From contig CAVRJY010000001.1 of the NCBI GenBank assembly GCA_963721805.1, positions 1,184,001-1,248,000 of the forward strand: a stretch of 64,000 nucleotides of DNA. The letters are read 5' to 3'. How positions within the stretch are numbered: position 1 is the stretch's first letter; the number at the start of each line of letters is the position of its first letter. Under the pieces are notes generated by a model that worked only from the letters and a program-made list of their open reading frames with translations, did no database searches and was not told the DNA's origin. The position numbers and the translations under genes are program-made. This document shows, one piece after another, positions 42,663 through 54,831 of the stretch. The stretch is from Nitrospirota bacterium (GTDB lineage Bacteria > Nitrospirota > Thermodesulfovibrionia > Thermodesulfovibrionales > JdFR-86).

Positions 42663-43126
42663 TCCCGGTCAGGCGTCTCGTATGCAGGACCGCGCTGCGC
42701 GTCCTCACAGCACTGCTCCTCGCGTGTTGCGCCGGCGCGGTCGCACTCGCTGATACGGGCAATATAACGATGCCCGGCACTATCAATATAAAGGCGCTCG
42801 AAGACCGCTTCGGCCCCGTGGCCTTTGACCACGAGAAGCACGTGACGATGGCCGGGGCGTGCGGCAAGTGCCACCACCTTCATAACGACAAGACAGTGGA
42901 CGCCTGCAGGACCTGCCATTCGCTCAAGGCCGAGGACTTCAGGGCCACGGCCACGCAGGGCTTTCTTCGGTGCGAGGGCTGCCACTCGGACGCCTCGGCC
43001 GAGTCGCCCGGCATGCCGGGGCTAAAGGTTGCGTTCCACAAGGTCTGCTTCTCGTGCCACGTTGGGATGGCCGGGCTCGGCTCGACCCCAAAGTCGTGCG
43101 AGCGCACCTGCCACTCACGCAGATGA
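42659..43126 (+). CDS. Periplasmic cytochrome c3-family protein (4 CxxCH plus 1 CxxxCH)
   Basis: Signal peptide, VAFDHEKH, CGKCH, CRTCH, CEGCH, CFSCH, CERTCH. Confidence 0.9.
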   Translation: MIPVRRLVCRTALRVLTALLLACCAGAVALADTGNITMPGTINIKALEDRFGPVAFDHEKHVTMAGACGKCHHLHNDKTVDACRTCHSLKAEDFRATATQGFLRCEGCHSDASAESPGMPGLKVAFHKVCFSCHVGMAGLGSTPKSCERTCHSRR

Positions 43127-43146
43127 TTAGCGATAAGGAGGGTGAA

Positions 43147-44106
43147 ATGTCTATAACAAATGAGGCCGCAGAAGGCGGCGCCCGCCCCAGCGGCATATCG
43201 AGGCGCGGTTTCCTCTCGCTCTCTGCCTTCGCGGCGGTCACAGCTATAGCAGGCAGCGCGCTTGCCTCGCCCGGCAACTCGGTGCCTGAGTTCAGCGGCT
43301 GGCCCAAGAGCTATGGCATGCTCACGGACTTCACCGCATGCGTCGGCTGCCGCAGTTGCGAGGCCGCCTGCAACGCGGCCAACAAGATGCCGAAGCCTGA
43401 TAAGCCCTTCGACGATCCGGCTGTCTTCGAGCAGGACCGCTGGCCCACGGCCTCGGCCCTTACGGTGGTAAACCGCTACAAGGGTGCGGACCCATCAAGG
43501 CCGGTATACAGAAAGATACAGTGCAACCACTGCCTCGAGCCCGCGTGCGCCTCGGCCTGCCCGATCCACGCTTACACCAAGACGCCCGAGGGCGCGGTCC
43601 TCTACAACCCGGACCTCTGCTTCGGCTGCCGGTACTGTGTCGTGGCCTGCCCGTTTAACATGCCTGCCTACGACTACGGCAGCGCGCTTCAGCCCAGGAT
43701 CGTAAAGTGCATCATGTGCCACCCCAAGATCGCGAAGGGCGAGGCCCCCGCGTGCGCCGCGGCCTGCCCCGCAGGCGCGATCACGTTCGGCCGCAGGGAA
43801 GAACTTATAAAGGTAGCGCACGAGAGGATCAAGAAGGACCCCGGCCGGTACATAGATCACGTCTATGGCGAGCACGAGGCAGGCGGCACGTCGTGGGTAT
43901 ACCTCTCGGGGGTGCCGTTTGAGCAGCTAGGGTTCCCGGTCAACCTCCCGGACAAGCCGATGATAGAGCTGTCGAAGGACTACCTCTCGTCCGTGCCGGT
44001 GATATTCACTACCTTCCCGGCGATATTCGGGCTCGTTTATTACGCGATGCGTGGTAAGGATAATAAGGACGAAAACGGCAAAGACAAGGAGACCCGCCAT
44101 GAATGA
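43147..44106 (+). CDS. Tat-exported 4x[4Fe-4S] protein (HybA/HmcB family)
   Basis: SRRGFL, CVGCRSCEAAC, CNHCLEPACASACP, CFGCRYCVVACP, CIMC..CAAACP, YGEHEAGGT, C-terminal TM. Confidence 0.92.
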   Translation: MSITNEAAEGGARPSGISRRGFLSLSAFAAVTAIAGSALASPGNSVPEFSGWPKSYGMLTDFTACVGCRSCEAACNAANKMPKPDKPFDDPAVFEQDRWPTASALTVVNRYKGADPSRPVYRKIQCNHCLEPACASACPIHAYTKTPEGAVLYNPDLCFGCRYCVVACPFNMPAYDYGSALQPRIVKCIMCHPKIAKGEAPACAAACPAGAITFGRREELIKVAHERIKKDPGRYIDHVYGEHEAGGTSWVYLSGVPFEQLGFPVNLPDKPMIELSKDYLSSVPVIFTTFPAIFGLVYYAMRGKDNKDENGKDKETRHE

Positions 44107-45343
44107 CGATGCCCGCGCGGCCGCGCGTCCGATAAGTTTCAGGGAGTGGTTCATGGACAAGCTGTTTATGGGCCTGAGCGCGCAGGACTACGCCCGCAGG
44201 ATAGCGACCCCCTTTAACATGGTCGCGGTCACGATACTCCTGGTGGCCACACCGGTGTTCTTCAGCCGTTACGTTTACGGCCTGGGCTCAGTGATGGACG
44301 CAACGAGCGAGTACCCCTGGGGCGTGCTCTTAAGCTGGGGGATCTTCGCCGGCGAGCCGATGTTCGCGTCCGGTTTCGTAGTGGCGGCGGCCTACTACCT
44401 CTTCGGTATGAAGTCCTTCAGGCCCCTGGTGCGGCTCGCGGTGCTCGGCGGGATGCTCGGCTATGCGTTTGCGGCCTCGTACCTCCTGATAGACCTGGGC
44501 AGGCCGTGGCGCTTGTACTATCCGATGGTCATCAACTTCGGGCCGTCCTCGGTCCTGTTCATCGTGGCCTGGCACGTATCGCTTTATGTCACGGTGCAGC
44601 TCCTGGAGTTCTCGCCGGCCATACTCGAATGGCTGGGCTCCAAGCGCATCCATAAGTGGGCCGTAAACGCCACGGTCGCGCTCATCATCGGCGGCGTCAT
44701 ACTCTCTACCGTGCACCAGTCTGCGCTCGGCGCGATGTACCTGATGACGCCTGGCAAACTCCACCCGCTATGGTATTCGCCGCGCCTGCCGCTGCTGTTT
44801 TTCAGCTCGGCGGTCTACGGCGCGATGTGCTTTGCGATGCTCCTTGCGTTCATCGCGGTGCGGTATTATCCTTCGCGCTGCGACAGGGCGTTTACGGACA
44901 GCATCCCGAAGCTCACGCTGAGCCTCGCCAAGGGCGCGGCGCTTGCGATGTACGTCTATTTCTCGCTCAAGGTGCTGGCGCTTGCCGAGGACAACCGGTG
45001 GGAGCTGCTCCTGACCCCCTTCGGCCACTGGTATCTCGTCGAGCTGCTGTGGTTCGTCGTGACGCCGATGGTGATGATGAGCGTCGCGGTCAAGCGCGAA
45101 AGCATAGGGCTGGCGCGCTTTTCGGCGCTGGCGGCGGCCCTCGGGATACTGCTTAACAGACTGAACGTGAACCTTATAGCGTATAATTGGGACAGGCCCG
45201 GCCACATGCACAACATCATCCCGGCCTGGACCGAGATCGTTATGATTATGGCGATGGTCACGCTGCACGTGATGGCCTTCAGGTGGATCATGAACAGGTT
45301 CCCGGTGACGAACGAGCTGCCGGAATACAGGGATTCGCATTAG
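44099..45343 (+). CDS. NrfD/PsrC-family integral membrane subunit (HybB/HmcC-like)
   Basis: YPWG, DLGRPWR, LSTVHQSALG, KLHPLWYS. Confidence 0.92.
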   Translation: MNDDARAAARPISFREWFMDKLFMGLSAQDYARRIATPFNMVAVTILLVATPVFFSRYVYGLGSVMDATSEYPWGVLLSWGIFAGEPMFASGFVVAAAYYLFGMKSFRPLVRLAVLGGMLGYAFAASYLLIDLGRPWRLYYPMVINFGPSSVLFIVAWHVSLYVTVQLLEFSPAILEWLGSKRIHKWAVNATVALIIGGVILSTVHQSALGAMYLMTPGKLHPLWYSPRLPLLFFSSAVYGAMCFAMLLAFIAVRYYPSRCDRAFTDSIPKLTLSLAKGAALAMYVYFSLKVLALAEDNRWELLLTPFGHWYLVELLWFVVTPMVMMSVAVKRESIGLARFSALAAALGILLNRLNVNLIAYNWDRPGHMHNIIPAWTEIVMIMAMVTLHVMAFRWIMNRFPVTNELPEYRDSH

Positions 45344-45353
45344 GAGGCCCGGG

Positions 45354-46820
45354 ATGCCCTCCCGCCTGAGCATGAGGATCGCGGCCGGATCGGCGGCAGC
45401 CTTCGCCGCGGTAATCGTCGCTGTTGCCCTGTTTGCCGCGACCTGCTTCGCCGAGGACGTCAGAGCCGGGGACGAGCGCGCGGCCTGCCTGAAGTGCCAC
45501 GCGCAGGGCGGCGGGATCAAGCGGTTTCCGGACGGGAAATCCATATCGACGTACGTCGACGGCGTGGAGCTCGAACAGTCCGTGCACGGCGCTCTGCCTT
45601 GCACCGCCTGCCACAAGGACTTCGCCTCGGGCCGCCACCCGGACCGCGCCTTCAGGAACAAGCCTCAGTACCTCATCCGCGAATCGCACGGCTGCCGGGG
45701 CTGCCACTCGGACGCCGCGCTCAGGCGCAAGCAGGTCCACGAGGAGCTGTTTGCGAAGGAAGACGCGGGCGACGCCATTGTATGCACCAACTGCCACGGA
45801 GCGCACGCGATACGGCGCGCCAGCCACGCCTCGGACAAGGGCGAGGACGAGCGCTGCATGGGTTGCCACGAGGGCGGCGGGGCATCTGAGTTCTTAAACG
45901 GCGAACAGCTGCCGGTCCATGTCGACCTCGCTGTGATCGGCAGCTCCGCGCACCACGGCCTGCGGTGCATGGACTGCCATTACTGGATCACGGGGGAGCG
46001 CCACCCGCGCCGGAACTTCCGCTCGCTGAGGGACTACCAGCTCGCCACGGCCGAGATCTGCCGCCGCTGCCACTTCGACAAGTACTCAGAGGTCAGCGAG
46101 AGCATCCACTACGACATGCTCAGAAGCGGGAACCTGAAGGCCCCCACCTGCATCGACTGCCACGGCGGGCACTCGGCCACCTCGCCTGCCAGGGACCGCA
46201 TGGCCGTCGTGCGCAAGTGCCGCGCCTGCCACGGCGGGATATACGAGACATACGCTGCGAGCGTCCACGGCAGCGCCCTGATACAGGAGGGCAACCGCGA
46301 CGTCCCGATCTGCACCGACTGCCACTCCTCGCACAGCATCAAGCGCGCCGACACGAACGCCTTCCACCAGGGGATCCCGGACACGTGCAGCGCCTGCCAC
46401 TCCAACCCGGCCATCATGTCCAAGTACGGGCTCTCGACCGACGTGGTCAGGACCTATCTTGCGGATTTCCACGGCGTGACGATGGAGTTCTACCGCAAGC
46501 AGGGCGGGATGTCGCAGTACCGCCCGGCGCAGAGCATGGCCGTGTGCACCGACTGCCACGGCACGCACGACATCATGCGCATGTCCGGCTCCGACACGAA
46601 GGAGATCAAGGCGCGGCTGCTCGAGCGCTGCCGCAACTGCCACCACGACGCCACCGAGCAGTTCCCCGACGCCTGGCTCTCGCACTACCGGCCGAGCTTG
46701 AAGGTAGCCCCGATGGTGTTCATAGTCGAGAAGTTCTACGGCCTGATGATGCCGCTGATGGTCGTCGGGCTGATACTCCAGATACTGCTTCACATATGGC
46801 GCTACCTGGTCAGCCGGTAA
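45354..46820 (+). CDS. Membrane-anchored multiheme cytochrome c (13 CxxCH)
   Basis: 13 CxxCH motifs counted, signal peptide, C-terminal TM helix. Confidence 0.93.
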   Translation: MPSRLSMRIAAGSAAAFAAVIVAVALFAATCFAEDVRAGDERAACLKCHAQGGGIKRFPDGKSISTYVDGVELEQSVHGALPCTACHKDFASGRHPDRAFRNKPQYLIRESHGCRGCHSDAALRRKQVHEELFAKEDAGDAIVCTNCHGAHAIRRASHASDKGEDERCMGCHEGGGASEFLNGEQLPVHVDLAVIGSSAHHGLRCMDCHYWITGERHPRRNFRSLRDYQLATAEICRRCHFDKYSEVSESIHYDMLRSGNLKAPTCIDCHGGHSATSPARDRMAVVRKCRACHGGIYETYAASVHGSALIQEGNRDVPICTDCHSSHSIKRADTNAFHQGIPDTCSACHSNPAIMSKYGLSTDVVRTYLADFHGVTMEFYRKQGGMSQYRPAQSMAVCTDCHGTHDIMRMSGSDTKEIKARLLERCRNCHHDATEQFPDAWLSHYRPSLKVAPMVFIVEKFYGLMMPLMVVGLILQILLHIWRYLVSR

Positions 46821-46830
46821 GGAGGACACC

Positions 46831-47520
46831 ATGAAACCCGCGATACACGCCGATCAAGAGGAAGTCCGGAGGTTCAGCAACTACCGGATTGCGGAGCACT
46901 TCAGCCTTCTGGCGCTGTTCGTCATCCTCGCCTCGACCGGCCTGGCCCAGAAGTTCCACGAACTCCCGCTCGCGCAGAGCTTCATGGTCTTCATGGGCGG
47001 CATCAGTACCATGCGCGCCGTGCACCACGCCGCCGGGGTTGGGCTGCTGGTCCTCCTTCTCGAACACGTGCTCACGGCCTGCGCCGGGATGTCGTTCTGG
47101 CGCTGGTCGCCCTCCATGCTCGTCACGTTCAAGGACTTCAGGGACACGCAGCAGAACGTCAGCTATTACCTAGGCATACAGCCTGAGCCCCCCAGGTTCG
47201 GCAGGTACAGCTACAAGGAGAAGTTCGTCTACTGGCTGATCCTGCTGGGCAGCCTGCAGCTGATCGTCTCGGGCCTCGTGCTCTGGTTTCCGGTGGCGGT
47301 CGCTAAGGTCCTGCCGGGGCAGTTCATCCCGGCCTCGAAGGTCGTACACTCAAACGACGCGATGACGATATTCCTGATGATTGCGATATGGCATATTTAC
47401 GATTCCATATTCAGCCCCGACGTGCTGCCGCTTGACAAGAGCATCTTTACCGGATATATTTCGGTTAAGAGGATGCGGGCCGAGCACCCGCACGAGGCTG
47501 CAGGCGAAAGACAGGACTGA
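46831..47520 (+). CDS. Di-heme cytochrome b (FdnI/formate dehydrogenase gamma-like)
   Basis: Four TM helices with His ligands, GRYSYKEKFVYW, WHIY. Confidence 0.88.
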   Translation: MKPAIHADQEEVRRFSNYRIAEHFSLLALFVILASTGLAQKFHELPLAQSFMVFMGGISTMRAVHHAAGVGLLVLLLEHVLTACAGMSFWRWSPSMLVTFKDFRDTQQNVSYYLGIQPEPPRFGRYSYKEKFVYWLILLGSLQLIVSGLVLWFPVAVAKVLPGQFIPASKVVHSNDAMTIFLMIAIWHIYDSIFSPDVLPLDKSIFTGYISVKRMRAEHPHEAAGERQD

Positions 47521-47616
47521 CAGGGCGGATGCGCCCGGACCTGCATGCCCCGGCCTCCGGCCCTCGCGGTATTTTTTGCTATACTGTTCAATGACGCGAC
47601 CGGTGCGGGGGAGACC

Positions 47617-49473
47617 ATGCAGCGCAAGATAGTTCTCCTTATAATGAGCTGCGTGCTGGTTATCCTCCTGACCGTGGGCATCGTAAGCCACCTCCGAGTC
47701 CAGGAAAGCATCAACCATTACATGGACTCCCACCTCGACCTGGCGCAGATGATCAGCCGCAACCTCGACGCCGTGGTCGAGCAAAACATAGCGAGGCTCC
47801 AGGGGATCGCGCTCTCGGGCGACCTCAGCCCCGGAGGGCCGGGCCTGGAGGCCGAGCGCAGCGCTCTTAGGGAGGCGTACGCTTATTCGCTCTTCGACCA
47901 CGGCCTGTTCCTGATGGACCTCCAGGGCAACGTCGTGCTCACTTACCCCCCGCGCGACGAAGAGCAGCGCAACCTTTTGGCCATTCCGATCGTCGCCGAC
48001 GCGATTGCGAAAAATGAGGTCTCCGTCTCCGGCATGTACACCGAGGCCGATACCGGCCAGAGCCTCTTGTACGTCCTCGTCCCGGTTAAGGGCGCAGACG
48101 GCGAGGTCGGCGGGTTCGTGGGTGGCGAGATCAGCCCCGCAAACGGGATGCTCGCCTCGTTCATACGCACCGTCGCTTCTGACAAATACATGAGCCTGGA
48201 TCTGGTGGACAGCCGCGGCACCGTGATAGCGAGCAACCGCGGCGACCGCGTCATGCAGCACCTCGACTATAAAAACGTCATCACCAAGATGATACACGAG
48301 GGCCGGAACTTCGTCGGCATCTGCCATAACTGCCATTTCTCGACGACCGAGGGCAACAGCCGGCTGCGGGAGGAGGACGTCCTCGTGTTCGTCCCGCTTA
48401 AAAGCGCGCCGTGGGGCATATCGATCCGCCACCCGAGCGAGATAGTCTTCGGCCCGGCCCGCAGCCTCAGGAAGTCTTTCCTGCTGATAGGGGCGCTCAT
48501 TATCGGCGTCTCGGTGGTGCTGTCCGTGGGGCTCAGCCGGAGCATTGTCCGGCCGCTCAAGGAACTGACCGCGGCGTCAGAGCGCATAGCGGAGTGCAAC
48601 CTCGACGAGCCTGTCACGGTCAGGCGCTCCGACGAGATAGGGGTGCTCGCAAACAGCTTCGAGCTCATGCGCTGGAGGCTCAACGAGCTCCTGGGCAGGA
48701 TACAGACGCATAACCAGGAACTCGAGCACCGCGTGGCCGAGCGCACCTCGGAGCTCCAGCGCAGGAAGCTCCAGCTCTCGCGGCTCGTGCGCGAGGGCAT
48801 GCGCGCACAGGAGGACGAGCGCAGGCGCATTGCGCGCGAGCTCCACGACGAGACCAGCCAGACGCTGGCCGCCATGGGTATGTCGCTTGAGATCGCGACC
48901 GTCGCGCTTGCCGACGAGAAGCTCACCCCCGAGATGCTCGCCGGTTTGCAGGGCCGCGTCGGAGTGCTCGTCGACGGGATACACCGCATCATACAGGACC
49001 TGCGCCCGCCGGTGCTCGACGACCTCGGGCTCGAATCCGCGGTGCGGTGGCTGTTGAGGAAGAACCTCGACGAAAACGGCATAGAGTACACGTTCAGCTT
49101 CAGCGGGATCGAGGACCTGGAGATCGAAAAGAAGGAGGAGATGCGCATCTTCCGCATAATACAGGAGGCCCTCGCCAACATAGTGCGCCACTCGCGCGCG
49201 TCTCACGTATGCTTCAGCATGGCGGCCGACGAATTCACGCTCGACATAGACATCGTGGATAACGGCGTAGGCTTCGACGCCGAGGGCGCATTCGGCGGCT
49301 CGAGGGCCGACGAGGGGCTCAAGGGCTACGGCCTGCTCGGGATGCACGAGCGCGTCGAGCAGTTTTCAGGCGCGTTTTCGGTCACCTCGTTCCCGCTTGA
49401 GGAGACCGATATCGAGATCAGCCTCCCGATGGAGTTGATAGTGAAGAAAGGGAGCGGGACCGATATTGCATAA
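47617..49473 (+). CDS. Sensor histidine kinase (Cache-like, HAMP, HisKA_3) with periplasmic CxxCH
   Basis: ERRRIARELHDETSQ, QEALANIVRH, DNGVGF, GLLGMHER, CHNCH in the sensor domain. Confidence 0.93.
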   Translation: MQRKIVLLIMSCVLVILLTVGIVSHLRVQESINHYMDSHLDLAQMISRNLDAVVEQNIARLQGIALSGDLSPGGPGLEAERSALREAYAYSLFDHGLFLMDLQGNVVLTYPPRDEEQRNLLAIPIVADAIAKNEVSVSGMYTEADTGQSLLYVLVPVKGADGEVGGFVGGEISPANGMLASFIRTVASDKYMSLDLVDSRGTVIASNRGDRVMQHLDYKNVITKMIHEGRNFVGICHNCHFSTTEGNSRLREEDVLVFVPLKSAPWGISIRHPSEIVFGPARSLRKSFLLIGALIIGVSVVLSVGLSRSIVRPLKELTAASERIAECNLDEPVTVRRSDEIGVLANSFELMRWRLNELLGRIQTHNQELEHRVAERTSELQRRKLQLSRLVREGMRAQEDERRRIARELHDETSQTLAAMGMSLEIATVALADEKLTPEMLAGLQGRVGVLVDGIHRIIQDLRPPVLDDLGLESAVRWLLRKNLDENGIEYTFSFSGIEDLEIEKKEEMRIFRIIQEALANIVRHSRASHVCFSMAADEFTLDIDIVDNGVGFDAEGAFGGSRADEGLKGYGLLGMHERVEQFSGAFSVTSFPLEETDIEISLPMELIVKKGSGTDIA

Positions 49474-50125
49474 GCCGATCAAGATACTGATTGTCGACGA
49501 CCACGCGCTCGTGCGCGAGGGCATCCGCGCTTTGGTCGCGATGCACGAGGGCATCGAAGTAGTCGGCGAGGCCGAAGACGGCCTGCAAGCCATCGAGATG
49601 ACCGGCGACCTCGACCCCGACGTGGTGCTTATGGATATTGCGATGCCCAGGTACGGCGGCCTCGAGGCCACGCTCGAGATCAGGAAGAAGCACAAGGACG
49701 CCAAGATACTGATCCTCAGCCAGTACGACGACCCCCAGTACCTCGACCGCTTCCTCAAGGCCGGCGTCTCGGGGTATATCCTGAAGAAGGCCCTCGGCTC
49801 CGAGCTCGTCTCGGCCATCCGCGCGGTCGCGGCCGGGGAATCATACCTCCACCCGAGCCTGACCGCCAACGTGATAGAGCGCTACCTCTCGAAGGGCTCG
49901 CCCAAAAAGCCGGCAGAGCCCGTGAGCCTGACCTCACGCGAGCAGCAGATATTGAAGCTGCTGGCCGAGGGCAACAGCCACAAGGAGATAGCCTCGATAC
50001 TCGATATCAGCGTCAAGACCGTCGTCGCCCACCAGTCGAACATCTCCGAGAAGCTCGACCTGCATACGCGCGCCGGGCTCATAAAATACGCCTTCCAGCA
50101 CGGCATAGTCAGGGCCGAATCGTGA
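49466..50125 (+). CDS. NarL/LuxR-family response regulator
   Basis: IVDDH, MDIAMP, LTSREQQILKLLAEG, ISVKTV. Confidence 0.95.
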   Translation: MHKPIKILIVDDHALVREGIRALVAMHEGIEVVGEAEDGLQAIEMTGDLDPDVVLMDIAMPRYGGLEATLEIRKKHKDAKILILSQYDDPQYLDRFLKAGVSGYILKKALGSELVSAIRAVAAGESYLHPSLTANVIERYLSKGSPKKPAEPVSLTSREQQILKLLAEGNSHKEIASILDISVKTVVAHQSNISEKLDLHTRAGLIKYAFQHGIVRAES

Positions 50126-50527: not shown

Positions 50528-51640
50528 ATGGAGGAAAAACCAGGCAGGCCGTTTGGCGAACTCTACGACTCATTGATCCAGCGCGGCGTGACGCGCCGGG
50601 ACTTCCTGACGTTCTGCAGCACGATGGCCGCGGCCCTGGCGCTGCCGGCCGGTTACGGCGCGACAATTGCCGAGGCGCTGGAGAAGGCAAAGAAGCCGAT
50701 CGTCGTCTGGCTCGAGATGCAGGCCTGCACCGGGGATACAGAGTCCCTGCTTCGGGCCACCAAGCCCGCGGTCGGAGAGCTGCTCCTTGACATCATCTCC
50801 CTGGACTACGCTGAGGTGATCATGGCCTCGGCCGGTTTCCAGGCCGAGAAGTGCCTCTCCGACGTGGTCAAGAACGAGAAGGGCAAGTACATCTGCATCA
50901 TCGAGGGCGCGATCCCGCTGGCCGAGGGCGGCATATACGGCACCATCGGCGGCAGGACAATGGTCGATATTGCTAGAGAGGTCAGCGGCAGCGCCCTGGC
51001 CACAATCGCTGTCGGCAACTGCGCCTGGGACGGAGGAATACCCGCGGCCCAGCCTAACCCCACCGGCGCGGTGGGGGTCAAGGACGCCGTGAGCGGCATA
51101 ACGCTGATCAACCTGCCCGGCTGCCCGATGAACGGAGAGAACCTTACGGCAGTAATCGTGCACTTCCTGACGTTCGGCACCCTGCCGGTCACCGATACCT
51201 TTGGCCGCCCGCGCTTCGCATACGGCAAGCGCGTCCATGACAACTGCGAGCGCCGCGCGCACTTCGACGCCGGGCAGTATGTCCGCAGGTGGGGCGACGA
51301 AGGCCACCGCCTCGGCTGGTGCCTCTACGAGATGGGGTGCAAGGGGCCGGACACCTTCCATAACTGCCCTATCGTCAGGTGGAACGGGGGCACAAGTTGG
51401 CCGGTGCAGTCCGGCCACGGCTGCATAGGCTGTGCTGCGCCTCACTTCTGGGATACGATGACTCCGTTCTACCGCAGGCTGCCCAAGGTGCCGGGCTTCG
51501 GCATCGAGACCACGGCCGACAAGATCGGCCTCGGCGTGGCTGCCGCGGCCGCCGCGGGCCTCGCAGCGCATGCCATAACCAGGGCGGTAAAGGGCGGTTA
51601 CAAGCCCGAGGAACATAAAAAAGAGGAGGATAAAAAATAA
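50528..51640 (+). CDS. [NiFe]-hydrogenase small subunit (group 1, Tat-exported, C-terminal anchor)
   Basis: [42 protein letters not shown]. Confidence 0.96.
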
Positions 51641-53349
51641 TGCCGAAAATCGTAGTCGACCCGATCACGAGGATCGAGGGACATTTGAGGATCGAGGCGC
51701 AGGTCGATGGCGGTAAGATCGTCGACGCGTGGGCCTCGTCCACGGCATTCCGCGGGATAGAGATCATACTGAAGGGCAGAGACCCGCGCGACGCATGGGC
51801 CTTTACCCAGCGAATATGCGGGGTCTGAACGACCGTTCATGCCACCGCATCCGTGCGATGCGTCGAGAGCGCTTTAAACATAACGATCCCCGATAACGCG
51901 AGGGTCATACGCAATATCATCAGCGGCATGCAGCAGGTGCAGGACCACATCATACACTTCTATCACCTGCATGCCCTTGACTGGGTAGACGTCGTCTCCG
52001 CGCTCAAGGCCGACCCGGCCAAGACCTCCGCGCTCGCCCAGTCGATCTCCGACTGGCACAACTCCAGCGCCGCGTATTTCAAGGGAGTGGCGGCAAAGCT
52101 CACCGAGTTCGTCCAGCGCGGCCAGCTCGGCCCGTTCGCGAACGCATACTGGGGGCACAAGGCCTATAAGCTCCCGCCCGAGGCGAACCTGATGGCCGTG
52201 GCTCATTATCTCGAGGCCCTCGAAATTCAGAAAGACATCATCCGCCTGCACGCCACCCTGGGCGGCAAGAACCCCCACTTGCAGACGTACGTCGTTGGCG
52301 GCATGGCGTGCCCGATCGATCCCAACAGCCAAAACGCGATCAACGCCGCGAGTATCCAGTTCATGAAGGATCTTTCCGCGAGGGCCACCGCGTTCGTCGA
52401 GCAGGTATACATCCCTGACCTGCTGGCGGTGGCCTCGTTCTACAAGGACTGGGCCGCGATAGGCGAGGGCGTGGGCAACTACCTCTCAGCCGGCGACTTC
52501 CCCATGGACGGCCTGCCCAACAGCACGAACAACTGGCTTCCGGGCGGAGTGATCAAGGGCAAGAACCTCTCGAAGGTCGAGACCGTAGATCCCAAGAAGA
52601 TCGCAGAGCACGTCGCCCACTCGTGGTATACATACTCTGGCGGCGACGAGAAGGGCGTCCACCCGTATGACGGCGAGACGAGCCCGAAATATACCGGGCC
52701 CAAGCCGCCATATAAGGAACTCGACACTGCCGCCAAATACACCTGGTCCAAGGCCCCGCGTTACGACGACCTGCCGATGGAGGTCGGGCCGCTCTCGCGC
52801 ATGCTAGTGGCGTACGCACAGGGCCACAAAGAGGTGGTCGAGGTCGTGAACCTCGTCTTAGGAAAACTCGGAGTGGGACCGGCGGCGTTGTTCTCGACTC
52901 TGGGCCGCACCGGAGCCCGTGGAGTCGAGACGCTCGTGATAGCCCGTAAGCTGCCGTCGATGATCGACGAGCTCGCGGCGAACATCAAGAAGGGCGACCT
53001 CGCTATAGCTAACACGACTCTATGGGAGCCCTCGACCTGGCCGAGCGAGTGCAGGGGGTACGGTTTCCACGAGGCCCCGCGCGGCATGCTGAGCCATTGG
53101 ATCAACATCAAGGACCAGAAGATCGCGAACTACCAGTGCATAGTGCCCGGCACCTGGAACGTCTCTCCGCGCGACGCAAAGGGGCAGCGCGGCCCTTACG
53201 AGGCTGCCCTGATCGGCACGCCGATCGAGAACCTCGAGCAGCCGCTGGAGATCCTGCGCACGGTGCATTCGTTCGACCCATGCATGGCGTGCGCGGTGCA
53301 CGTGGTCGACGCCCAGAAAAACCCGGTCATCACAGTAAAGGTGAAGTAG
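51640..53349 (+). CDS. [NiFe]-hydrogenase large subunit, 569 aa if the in-frame TGA at 51826-51828 is read through (candidate Sec63)
   Basis: [16 protein letters not shown][TGA][19 protein letters not shown] plus cleavable C-terminal tail. Both ORF-track fragments are in the same frame. Confidence 0.93.
51826..51862 (+). promoter_or_regulatory. Candidate bacterial SECIS element following the in-frame UGA
   Basis: Stem CGCATC (51846-51851)/GATGCG (51857-51862), loop CGTGC with GU at loop positions 2-3, loop starting 23 nt after UGA. Confidence 0.55.
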
Positions 53350-53365
53350 GGAAGGAGGACAGACC

Positions 53366-54055
53366 GTGATTGATAAAGGAAATGGGGAGACCTGCTCCCT
53401 TGCGTCACGCATAGTGTATGTCTGGCAGGTCCCGGTCCGCCTCGTGCACTGGACGAACGTCCTGAGCATCCTGACGCTCTCGGTCACGGGCTTCTACATC
53501 GGGGCTCCGTTCATGCACGCCATCGACACGACTCAAAACATAATGGGCAACATCAGGTTCATCCACTTCACGGTCGCCTACATTTTCCTGGTGAGCGTGC
53601 TGTCGCGCATCGCGTGGTCGTTCATGGGCAACAAGTATGCGAGTTGGAGGACATGGTTCCCGTTTTCGCGGCCTCACCTCGGCGAGCTGTGGAACGCCCT
53701 TAAGTTCTATATCATGATAGGCGGCAAGAAGCCCACCGTGGTCGGCCACACGGGCGTTGCGCTCATCACGTATTTTTTCCTGCATGTGCTGTACGCGCTC
53801 ATGCTTCTTACAGGCTTCGCCTTTTACAGCATGGGCAGGCCCGAAAGTTTCGTGACGTTCCTGATGGGCAGGTGGGTGCTGAACTACGTGAGCCCGCAGG
53901 ACCTCCGGCTTTACCACCACATAACCATGTACGTGATCCTGACCTTCGCGGCCGTGCACGTTTACATCGCGTGGTGGTTCGACCTGATCGAGCGAAACGG
54001 GATAATGAGCAGCATGTTCAGCGGCAACAAGTTCCTGCACGAGGAAGAACGTTAA
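53366..54055 (+). CDS. Ni/Fe-hydrogenase b-type cytochrome subunit (HyaC/HupC)
   Basis: YVWQVPVRLVHW, RFIHF, LYHH, VHVY, SSMFSG. Confidence 0.93.
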   Translation: MIDKGNGETCSLASRIVYVWQVPVRLVHWTNVLSILTLSVTGFYIGAPFMHAIDTTQNIMGNIRFIHFTVAYIFLVSVLSRIAWSFMGNKYASWRTWFPFSRPHLGELWNALKFYIMIGGKKPTVVGHTGVALITYFFLHVLYALMLLTGFAFYSMGRPESFVTFLMGRWVLNYVSPQDLRLYHHITMYVILTFAAVHVYIAWWFDLIERNGIMSSMFSGNKFLHEEER

Positions 54056-54554
54056 ACTCTCGATCATAGGCATAGGCAATACCCTGCTCAGCGACGAGGG
54101 TGCGGGGGTGCACGCCGTAAGGGCGCTCGTGGAGAGGTACAGCTTCCCCGGAGGCGTCCGGCTGATCGACGGCGGCACGAAGGGGCTCGAACTGCTCTCT
54201 TACGTCGAGGGCGACCACCTGATGCTGCTTGACGCGGTGGACTTCGGCGCTGCCCCCGGCACGGTGCGCATGATCGAGGGCGACGGCATCCACGCGTTTA
54301 TGGACATGAAGTTCTCGGTCCACCAGATCGGGGTGCCGGACCTCCTGTTCGCCGCGATGCTGACGGACGCGCTTCCGAGGGACGTCTGTCTGGTTGGGAT
54401 ACAGCCTCAGTCGCTCGAGGCAGGGCTGGAGCTTACGGACGTGGTGCGTGGTAAAATGGAAGAACTCCTCGGCATGGCCGTGGAGCGGCTCCGCTCGTGG
54501 GGCGTAGAGGTTGCCATCAAGGAGGCGGCTGATGTGTCTTGCGATTCCCTCTAA
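54051..54554 (+). CDS. Hydrogenase maturation protease (HyaD/HupD), no canonical start codon
   Basis: (V)KLSIIGIGNTLLSDEGAGVHAV, IDGGT, LDAVD, SVHQIG. The frame is open upstream of the ORF-track start. Confidence 0.88.
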   Translation, partial: VKLSIIGIGNTLLSDEGAGVHAVRALVERYSFPGGVRLIDGGTKGLELLSYVEGDHLMLLDAVDFGAAPGTVRMIEGDGIHAFMDMKFSVHQIGVPDLLFAAMLTDALPRDVCLVGIQPQSLEAGLELTDVVRGKMEELLGMAVERLRSWGVEVAIKEAADVSCDSL

Positions 54555-54831
54555 AGTTATAGAACTTGACGATATGCTCGCTACCGTGGATCTGTACGGC
54601 GCGCGCACCTCGGTGAGCCTGATGCTGATGCCCGAGGAGGTCAGGGTGGGCGACTACGTGCTCGTCCATGCCGGGTTCGCCCTGCAGCGCCTCGATGAGG
54701 CCGCGGCGCTCGATTCGCTCGCGCTGCTTCGTGAGGTTCAGGAGTTCATCGAGGCCGAAGAGGCCGAGGCGCGCGCCTCGGGTTTATTGTGCGGCCCCGT
54801 CCACGAAGGGCCTAAACTGAACTATTTGTAG
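54532..54831 (+). CDS. hypC: Hydrogenase assembly chaperone HypC/HupF
   Basis: MCLAIP N-terminus, [11 protein letters not shown]. Confidence 0.95.

Follow-up and report, generated by a model that had tools for sequence, protein, structure and literature searches.

Is an in-frame TGA that stands in the place of a nickel ligand of a [NiFe] hydrogenase a codon for selenocysteine (Sec, U), or is it the sign of a broken gene? The question is raised by a large-subunit gene found at positions 51640..53349 (+ strand) of the window, that is, of the whole stretch of 64,000 nucleotides (nt) analysed here, which corresponds to positions 1184001-1248000 of contig C1 in the genome of a Nitrospirota bacterium (2.78 Mb, 9 contigs). 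The gene encodes a Group 1 [NiFe] hydrogenase large subunit of 569 codons followed by a TAG stop, and its one internal stop is the TGA of codon 63 (51826..51828, + strand), at which Sec is predicted. The original prediction, made from the letters alone, had described this frame, with a single TGA on the second Cys of QRICGV-C-TTVH, and our translation gave the same result, the local reading around the TGA being QRICGV-U-TTVH. It had also pointed out that a stop falling on a metal-ligating Cys, and followed by a hairpin, is what Sec recoding would predict. Since the TGA is conserved, a constraint on the RNA is found only in Sec-type genes, the sequence on either side of the codon is under purifying selection and the genome has the complete Sec machinery, we come to the same reading and consider it very probable that this TGA is a genuine Sec codon and that the gene is a real selenoprotein gene.

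The assignment of codon 63 to a metal ligand comes from profile and structural alignments. The large subunit matched PF00374 over its full length (1-508/508, E 8e-238, Pfam), and is the sole full-length match to this Group 1-type family in the genome. Its best matches among the PDB chains were all of Group 1 (3myr_B, 1.1e-209; 4c3o_A, Salmonella Hyd-5, 1.5e-200; 3uqy_L, E. coli Hyd-1, 1.8e-182), and it reached no NCBIfam equivalog cut-off. In the alignments to 3myr_B and 4c3o_A, U63 falls on the second Cys of RICGVCT, and alignment to the solved chains makes it Cys79 in the numbering of E. coli Hyd-1 and Salmonella Hyd-5. The N-terminal motif RxCGxCxxxH was thus matched as RICGV(U)TTVH, with the TGA replacing the second Cys. 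The first Cys, which is a terminal Ni ligand, has an ordinary TGC (codon 60, 51817..51819, + strand). The C-terminal Ni-binding motif DPCxxCxxH reads DPCMACAVH (53275..53301, + strand), both ligands, C548 and C551, having ordinary Cys codons, and beyond it lies an extension of 15 codons plus the stop (53302..53349, + strand). Cleavage of such a tail after the last His is an established step of Group 1 maturation, and the protease is expected to remove it here after His554; the ordinary motif and the cleavable tail of the original prediction were therefore found as described, the cleavage itself being a deduction from the known pathway. In the structure of the D. gigas enzyme the second N-terminal Cys bridges Ni and Fe. 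The same role is given to the Cys at the site equivalent to U63 in the accessible text of Takano et al. 2026 (Front Microbiol, PMC13582414), and the predicted ligand set of the window enzyme, C60 (TGC), U63 (TGA), C548 and C551, would be of the type that these authors name N-terminal CXXU.

Recoding of UGA to Sec depends on dedicated genes, and these were absent from the window, as previously remarked, but all of them were found elsewhere in the genome. ARAGORN identified one tRNA with a UCA anticodon, at C1:1472357-1472453, about 12 kb upstream of selD, and its 8-bp acceptor stem, long variable arm and G73 make it a tRNA-Sec. Genes for SelA and SelB are also present, and selD (C1:1484881-1485801) has an in-frame TGA of its own so that, judging from its sequence, SelD is itself a selenoprotein in this genome. 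TGA is also the commonest ordinary stop, ending 387 of 963 long frames; therefore, the genetic code has not been reassigned.

The same machinery bears on the alternative that survives best, namely that the UGA is recoded through the SECIS (selenocysteine insertion sequence) element and SelB, but that Cys, delivered by a tRNA-ReC/SelC*-like tRNA, or another residue, through near-cognate reading, is inserted, in which case the enzyme would be an ordinary all-Cys [NiFe] hydrogenase. According to the available text of Takano et al. (PMC13582414), tRNA-ReC-like tRNAs occur in a share of the genomes with UXXU-type Group 4 enzymes, where insertion of Cys is discussed. Nevertheless, the single tRNA with a UCA anticodon has the acceptor stem, variable arm and G73 of a canonical tRNA-Sec. 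The mark of tRNA-ReC is U73. Moreover, the genome has one ordinary tRNA-Cys(GCA) only and no second Sec-like tRNA, and SelA and SelD are both present, SelD itself with a TGA. We consider insertion of Cys or of another residue at this codon very improbable, and we return to the reading of the TGA as a Sec codon.

Conservation of the TGA was evaluated in 41 related genomes. Of the 36 matches listed there, 23 contained two in-frame TGAs and 7 a single one, while 6 contained no TGA in frame. Thirty related loci were read codon by codon: TGA is at codon 63 in 27 of them, and 22 of these have it at codon 60 too (RIUGVU), so that the loci divide into U60+U63 (22), C60+U63 (5) and C+C (3). TGA at codon 63 only was found in the window, in one related locus (L030) and in three members of a paralogue clade with 52% identity. 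Both gene pieces were in frame and contiguous in every relative read. Across the whole order, a match at E<=1e-100 was found in 231 of 317 genomes; a hand tally of the 150 order-wide matches listed, which counts the TGAs of each match and not their codon positions, and has 101 further matches outside it, gave two TGAs in 96, one in 19 and none in 35. The same TGA was present in five named metagenome-assembled genomes (MAGs) of other studies (L067-L069, L072 and L074), assigned to Nitrospirota, Thermodesulfovibrio sp. and Dissulfurispiraceae, and these names make Thermodesulfovibrionales (Nitrospirota) the probable order of the bacterium. In a wider set of 110 loci, C/C was read in 76, U/U in 24 and C/U in 8, 2 being unreadable, and a search for related loci returned mainly Cys-type genes of other phyla (of 80 loci, 73 C/C, 5 Sec-type and 2 unreadable). 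The ratio of nonsynonymous to synonymous substitution rates (dN/dS), calculated against three relatives, was 0.05-0.06 upstream of the TGA (codons 1-62) and 0.16-0.23 downstream of it (codons 64-569), dS being >1. These values are low on both sides of the TGA and, therefore, both parts have long been kept as coding sequence.

Downstream of the TGA, 17 nt past the UGA, a predicted SECIS hairpin occupies 51846..51862 (+ strand), with a 6-bp stem made of CGCAUC (51846-51851) and GAUGCG (51857-51862) and a 5-nt loop, CGUGC, which has G at loop position 2. The GUG of the loop is invariant in 27/27 Sec-type sequences, and four fully paired variants of the 6-bp stem were observed, CAGCUC/GAGCUG, CGCAUC/GAUGCG, CGCCUC/GAGGCG and CUGCUC/GAGCAG. 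As compared with the CAGCUC/GAGCUG of its nearest relatives, the stem of the window has three pairs changed on both sides, in a compensatory manner, at the cost of two amino acid replacements, Ser69Ala and Ala73Cys. In addition, only one of 536 codon windows in the 27 Sec-type genes has a lower synonymous diversity than codons 64-76, whereas the same codons rank 490/546 in a Geobacter-like Cys-type clade (n=23) and 401/520 in that of the Gemmatimonadota (n=31). This synonymous constraint, confined to the Sec-type genes, is in our opinion the best indication that an RNA element goes with the UGA.

Several results speak against this interpretation and have to be weighed with it. No RNA run was found for the genome in the public run search, and the only public read run that was found (contigs, share 0.10) had zero cover over 51640-51924. 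The fold of 75 nt is no more stable than expected by chance (z = 0.85). When RNAalifold was applied to the 27 Sec-type sequences, the predicted consensus was not the hairpin but a different helix close to the UGA, which is invariant and weak (-0.87 kcal/mol) and shows no covariation. With one fixed register, 77.8% of the cells pair versus 74.3% in shuffles, 12 of 500 shuffles being as high, and double-sided changes were no rarer in the shuffles (69/500). The mean folding energy of a 28-nt segment was -8.58 kcal/mol in both Cys-type (n=51) and Sec-type (n=27) genes, and, the mean of the Cys-type control being identical, folding energy was dropped as evidence for a SECIS. Rfam, searched at E<=10 over 51600-52100, gave matches at chance level only and no matching family. 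The presence of SelA was also dropped as a discriminator, because nearly all relatives have it (40/41 related genomes), with or without the TGA. Finally, in the available text of Evans et al. (PNAS 2021, PMC8020662), the engineered C79U variant of E. coli Hyd-1 has 13% of the native H2-oxidation rate and, thus, the benefit of a bridging Se is not obvious.

Folds of the single sequences revealed that one register misfits some subclades, one of which has a bulged register, while the clade with 52% identity has a different hairpin. The significance of the hairpin comes from the comparative data only: of the SECIS-like hairpin first proposed, the structure itself, the invariant GUG and the constraint on the RNA stand, but its stability, taken alone, is unexceptional.

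The lack of cover in the only public run found also leaves room for a second explanation, that the TGA arose by nonsense mutation, or by a mistake in sequencing or assembly, so that the gene is broken or really encodes Cys, and a change of one base, from TGC or TGT to TGA, would be enough. On the other hand, TGA occurs at the same codon in 27/30 independently assembled loci and in named MAGs of other studies, dN/dS is well below 1 downstream of it with dS saturated, compensatory hairpin changes are found on the window's own branch, and the synonymous constraint is specific to Sec-type genes. This alternative, which the original prediction had kept, is even less probable than insertion of Cys, and conservation, RNA constraint and selection together effectively exclude it. 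The least probable explanation is that of gene callers, in which translation ends at the UGA and a separate protein of 498 amino acids starts at GTG 51853: genetic code table 11 does break the gene into exactly two open reading frames (ORFs) of 62 and 498 amino acids, but the longer product would be unable to bind the cofactor, because it has neither Glu13 of RIEGH nor the two N-terminal Ni ligands, purifying selection is strongest on codons 1-62 (dN/dS ~0.05), and in relatives the two pieces adjoin in the same frame without exception.

If the TGA is a Sec codon, the question arises of how a CxxU motif originated in a group in which most relatives have two TGAs. A maximum-likelihood tree of 105 large subunits was built by IQ-TREE quick search, with the Shimodaira-Hasegawa-like approximate likelihood ratio test (SH-aLRT) as support. 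The Sec-type genes formed one supported group of 29 entries (UxxU 23, CxxU 4, CxxC 2), neighbour to a Cys-type Geobacter/Desulfuromonadales clade, and UxxU is the commonest form in the clade of the window gene within its order. The window gene lies inside nested UxxU sets with SH-aLRT of 97, 99 and 96, and, because a CxxU gene nests in this way within a UxxU clade, the first Sec was probably lost on the window's branch; thus, the window copy most likely came from a UxxU ancestor through a TGA-to-TGC change at codon 60. Among the order-wide matches listed, CxxU forms recur elsewhere in the clade, in whole genera, and therefore codon 60 has changed several times. With modest confidence, on balance, we favour the view that the window gene is a half-reverted member of a large Group 1 clade that we have not found in print, in most members of which both N-terminal Ni ligands would be Sec (UxxU) served by one SECIS, and that its lineage dropped the terminal Se, kept the bridging one and re-tuned the SECIS by the three compensatory swaps. 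If this is true, the locus would serve as a natural experiment in which the bridging Se proves to be worth more than the terminal one, and would point to a Ni-Fe site with two seleniums that is new to hydrogenase biochemistry.

The clade with about 52% identity to the window gene, a second Group 1 large-subunit clade of the same order, has TGA at the codon of the bridging Cys only. Its members are L037, L039 and L040 (in genomes G027, G023 and G016, respectively), together with those of G034 and G011, and it has a Cys-type sister, L038. The hairpin differs as follows: L037 has the stem GCACUG/CGGUGC with the loop GCUU, L039 is alike, with the loop GCUU, and L040 has a 4-bp stem and an 8-nt loop. 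We also observed that TGA-containing and TGA-free hydrogenase copies are found together in eight genomes (G065, G069, G070, G316, G051, G075, G079 and G074). Such pairs of Sec and Cys copies recall the [NiFeSe]/[NiFe] pairs of Desulfovibrio, which are regulated by Se.

The original prediction had presented the enzyme as a candidate new type of seleno-hydrogenase. In this case, recoding to Sec at the bridging Cys stands, but the novelty does not, because N-terminal CXXU sequences in Group 1 had already been reported in 2011: Baltazar et al. (Eur J Inorg Chem), as cited in PMC13582414, described the motif, with a predicted Ni-Fe bridge, in two sequences of Group 1 and one of Group 3. The window enzyme is like them in having Sec at the second N-terminal Cys of a Group 1 protein and in being known from sequence only, and so would belong to a kind already noted; unlike in that account, as far as it is cited there, the variant is here common across a whole order and sits inside a UxxU clade. 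The contribution of this particular locus is a single one: it seems to have lost the first Sec while keeping the bridging Sec.

Natural N-terminal variants are also documented in Group 4, for which Takano et al. (PMC13582414) described CXXU, UXXC and UXXU forms in a survey that, in its accessible part, left out Group 1. The window gene shares with these the presence of Sec in the N-terminal motif only, a single downstream SECIS with G at loop position 1 or 2, the co-occurrence of selABCD and the interspersion of CXXU and UXXU on the tree. By contrast, the Group 4 enzymes of that survey are energy-converting multisubunit complexes, whereas the window enzyme would be a periplasmic Group 1 uptake hydrogenase anchored by a cytochrome b. 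In the accessible part of a 2026 selenoproteome review, the hydrogenases listed are of the C-terminal UxxC type only. A 2024 JACS paper was considered as a possible precedent and discarded, since its available part concerns a Cys beside the proton-gate Glu, which is another position. No paper on Group 1 UxxU enzymes was found in the literature searched, supplements and subscription journals being outside its scope.

The engineered C79U enzyme is an experimental counterpart, and the available text of Evans et al. (PMC8020662) also mentions 'purported examples' of natural substitution of the bridging Cys. The engineered variant has Sec at the same ligand position of a homologous membrane-bound Group 1 enzyme (E 1.8e-182 to 3uqy_L), and according to the same text it is almost inactive at 10% O2 and loses its O2 tolerance on prolonged exposure (PMC8020662). 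However, in that protein, as described there, Sec was inserted artificially at a UAG through EF-Tu, into an enzyme evolved with Cys, unlike the natural enzyme, which has co-evolved with Se.

The canonical [NiFeSe] hydrogenases (HysAB, as in Desulfomicrobium baculatum, 1CC1, and Desulfovibrio vulgaris Hildenborough, 2WPN) likewise have one Sec ligand encoded by UGA with a SECIS, but their Sec, a terminal Ni ligand, opens the C-terminal pair (DPUxxC), where the window gene has TGC (DPCMAC). Their chains match the window protein much less well, with partial alignments at E 1e-88 to 1e-101, and the HysA model NF045518 (407.7 vs 780) and the curated model NF033181 (545 vs 600; both NCBIfam) remained below their cut-offs, the former by far. 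Both the TGC in the C-terminal pair and these scores rule out a canonical HysA-type (Group 1a) identity. The closest solved structure is instead the membrane-bound [NiFe] hydrogenase of Allochromatium vinosum (3MYR), aligned over residues 3-554 at E 1.1e-209 and sharing RICGVC(T) and DPC.AC..H, which has four Cys ligands, unlike the window enzyme.

To our knowledge, all the biochemistry of [NiFeSe] hydrogenases comes from enzymes in which the C-terminal motif supplies Se as a terminal Ni ligand, and we know of no natural hydrogenase with Sec at the N-terminal bridging Cys that has been characterised biochemically. Se at other ligand positions has so far been addressed by engineered E. coli variants only, which lose activity. 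Natural enzymes whose Ni-Fe bridge contains Se, together with their two-Se relatives, would show how the position of Se tunes activity, catalytic bias and O2 sensitivity, and the clade would offer hydrogenase chemistry a widespread natural series of UxxU, CxxU and CxxC forms. Since gene callers split these genes into pieces of 62 and about 500 amino acids, H2 metabolism in Thermodesulfovibrionales-like sulfur/sulfate reducers is probably under-annotated, or called broken.

The genes around the large subunit are those expected for a Group 1 operon: a small subunit with a twin-arginine translocation (Tat) signal, a b-type cytochrome and an endopeptidase accompany a large subunit extended beyond its last His. 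The small subunit (370 amino acids, 50528..51640, + strand) matched PF01058, PF14720 and TIGR00391 (429.8 bits), as well as TAT_signal_seq; its translation and NCBIfam revealed the Tat signal TRRDFLTF and a hydrophobic C-terminal segment, and its TAA stop shares one base with the ATG of the large subunit. The b-type cytochrome membrane anchor follows at 53366..54055 (+ strand; PF01292; TIGR02125, 144.4 bits vs a cut-off of 121.5), and then come a HyaD/HybD-type maturation endopeptidase at 54054..54554 (+ strand; PF01750; TIGR00072 above cut-off) and a HypC/HupF chaperone at 54511..54831 (+ strand; PF01455; TIGR00074; translation). HypC probably starts at ATG 54532, because its Pfam match opens at residue 8.

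The endopeptidase ORF with a canonical start begins at GTG 54108, and from there the TIGR00072 profile was matched only from position 18, whereas the conserved N-terminus (KLSIIGIGNTLLSDEGAG) is encoded upstream, from ~54054. Reading of this frame gave no ATG, GTG or TTG between the preceding stop and GTG 54108; the protein is likely to start at a non-canonical codon (ATC 54066 or ATA 54069, behind GAGGAAGAA) or by coupling to the TAA stop of the cytochrome b gene (54053-54055). Apart from this start of the protease gene, Pfam and NCBIfam agreed with the earlier description of intact small subunit, cytochrome b and HypC genes accompanied by a maturation protease.

With these partners, a pathway for the enzyme can be proposed. 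SelB, with Sec-tRNA(Sec), would bind the hairpin at 51846-51862 and insert Sec at residue 63, which would become one of the two ligands bridging Ni and Fe, giving an active site with one Se bridge and three Cys sulfurs. As is standard for the group, the HyaD-type protease would cut after His554 once the cofactor had been inserted in a HypC-dependent manner, and the large subunit would then be exported along with the small subunit that carries the Tat signal. Anchored to the b-type cytochrome, the complex would pass electrons to the quinone pool, acting as a membrane-bound H2-uptake enzyme.

Two further observations concern the surroundings of the gene. Residues 67-70 of the small subunit (50726-50737) read CTGD, Asp replacing the second Cys of the CTGC that is standard for the proximal cluster. 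Among the 27 Sec-type loci with a small-subunit match, 18 have D and 9 have N as the last residue of this motif, and none has C; of the Cys-type loci, 36 have C, 23 have D and 8 have N. Farther upstream, 42970-47520 encodes a 4Fe-4S dicluster protein, an NrfD-like membrane protein, a multihaem cytochrome c and a second cytochrome, of b561 type, and between these respiratory genes and the operon (47545-50125) lie a dCache/HAMP histidine kinase and a LuxR-type response regulator. From its gene content, the region 42970-50125 may be a quinone-linked respiratory module together with a regulator of the hydrogenase.

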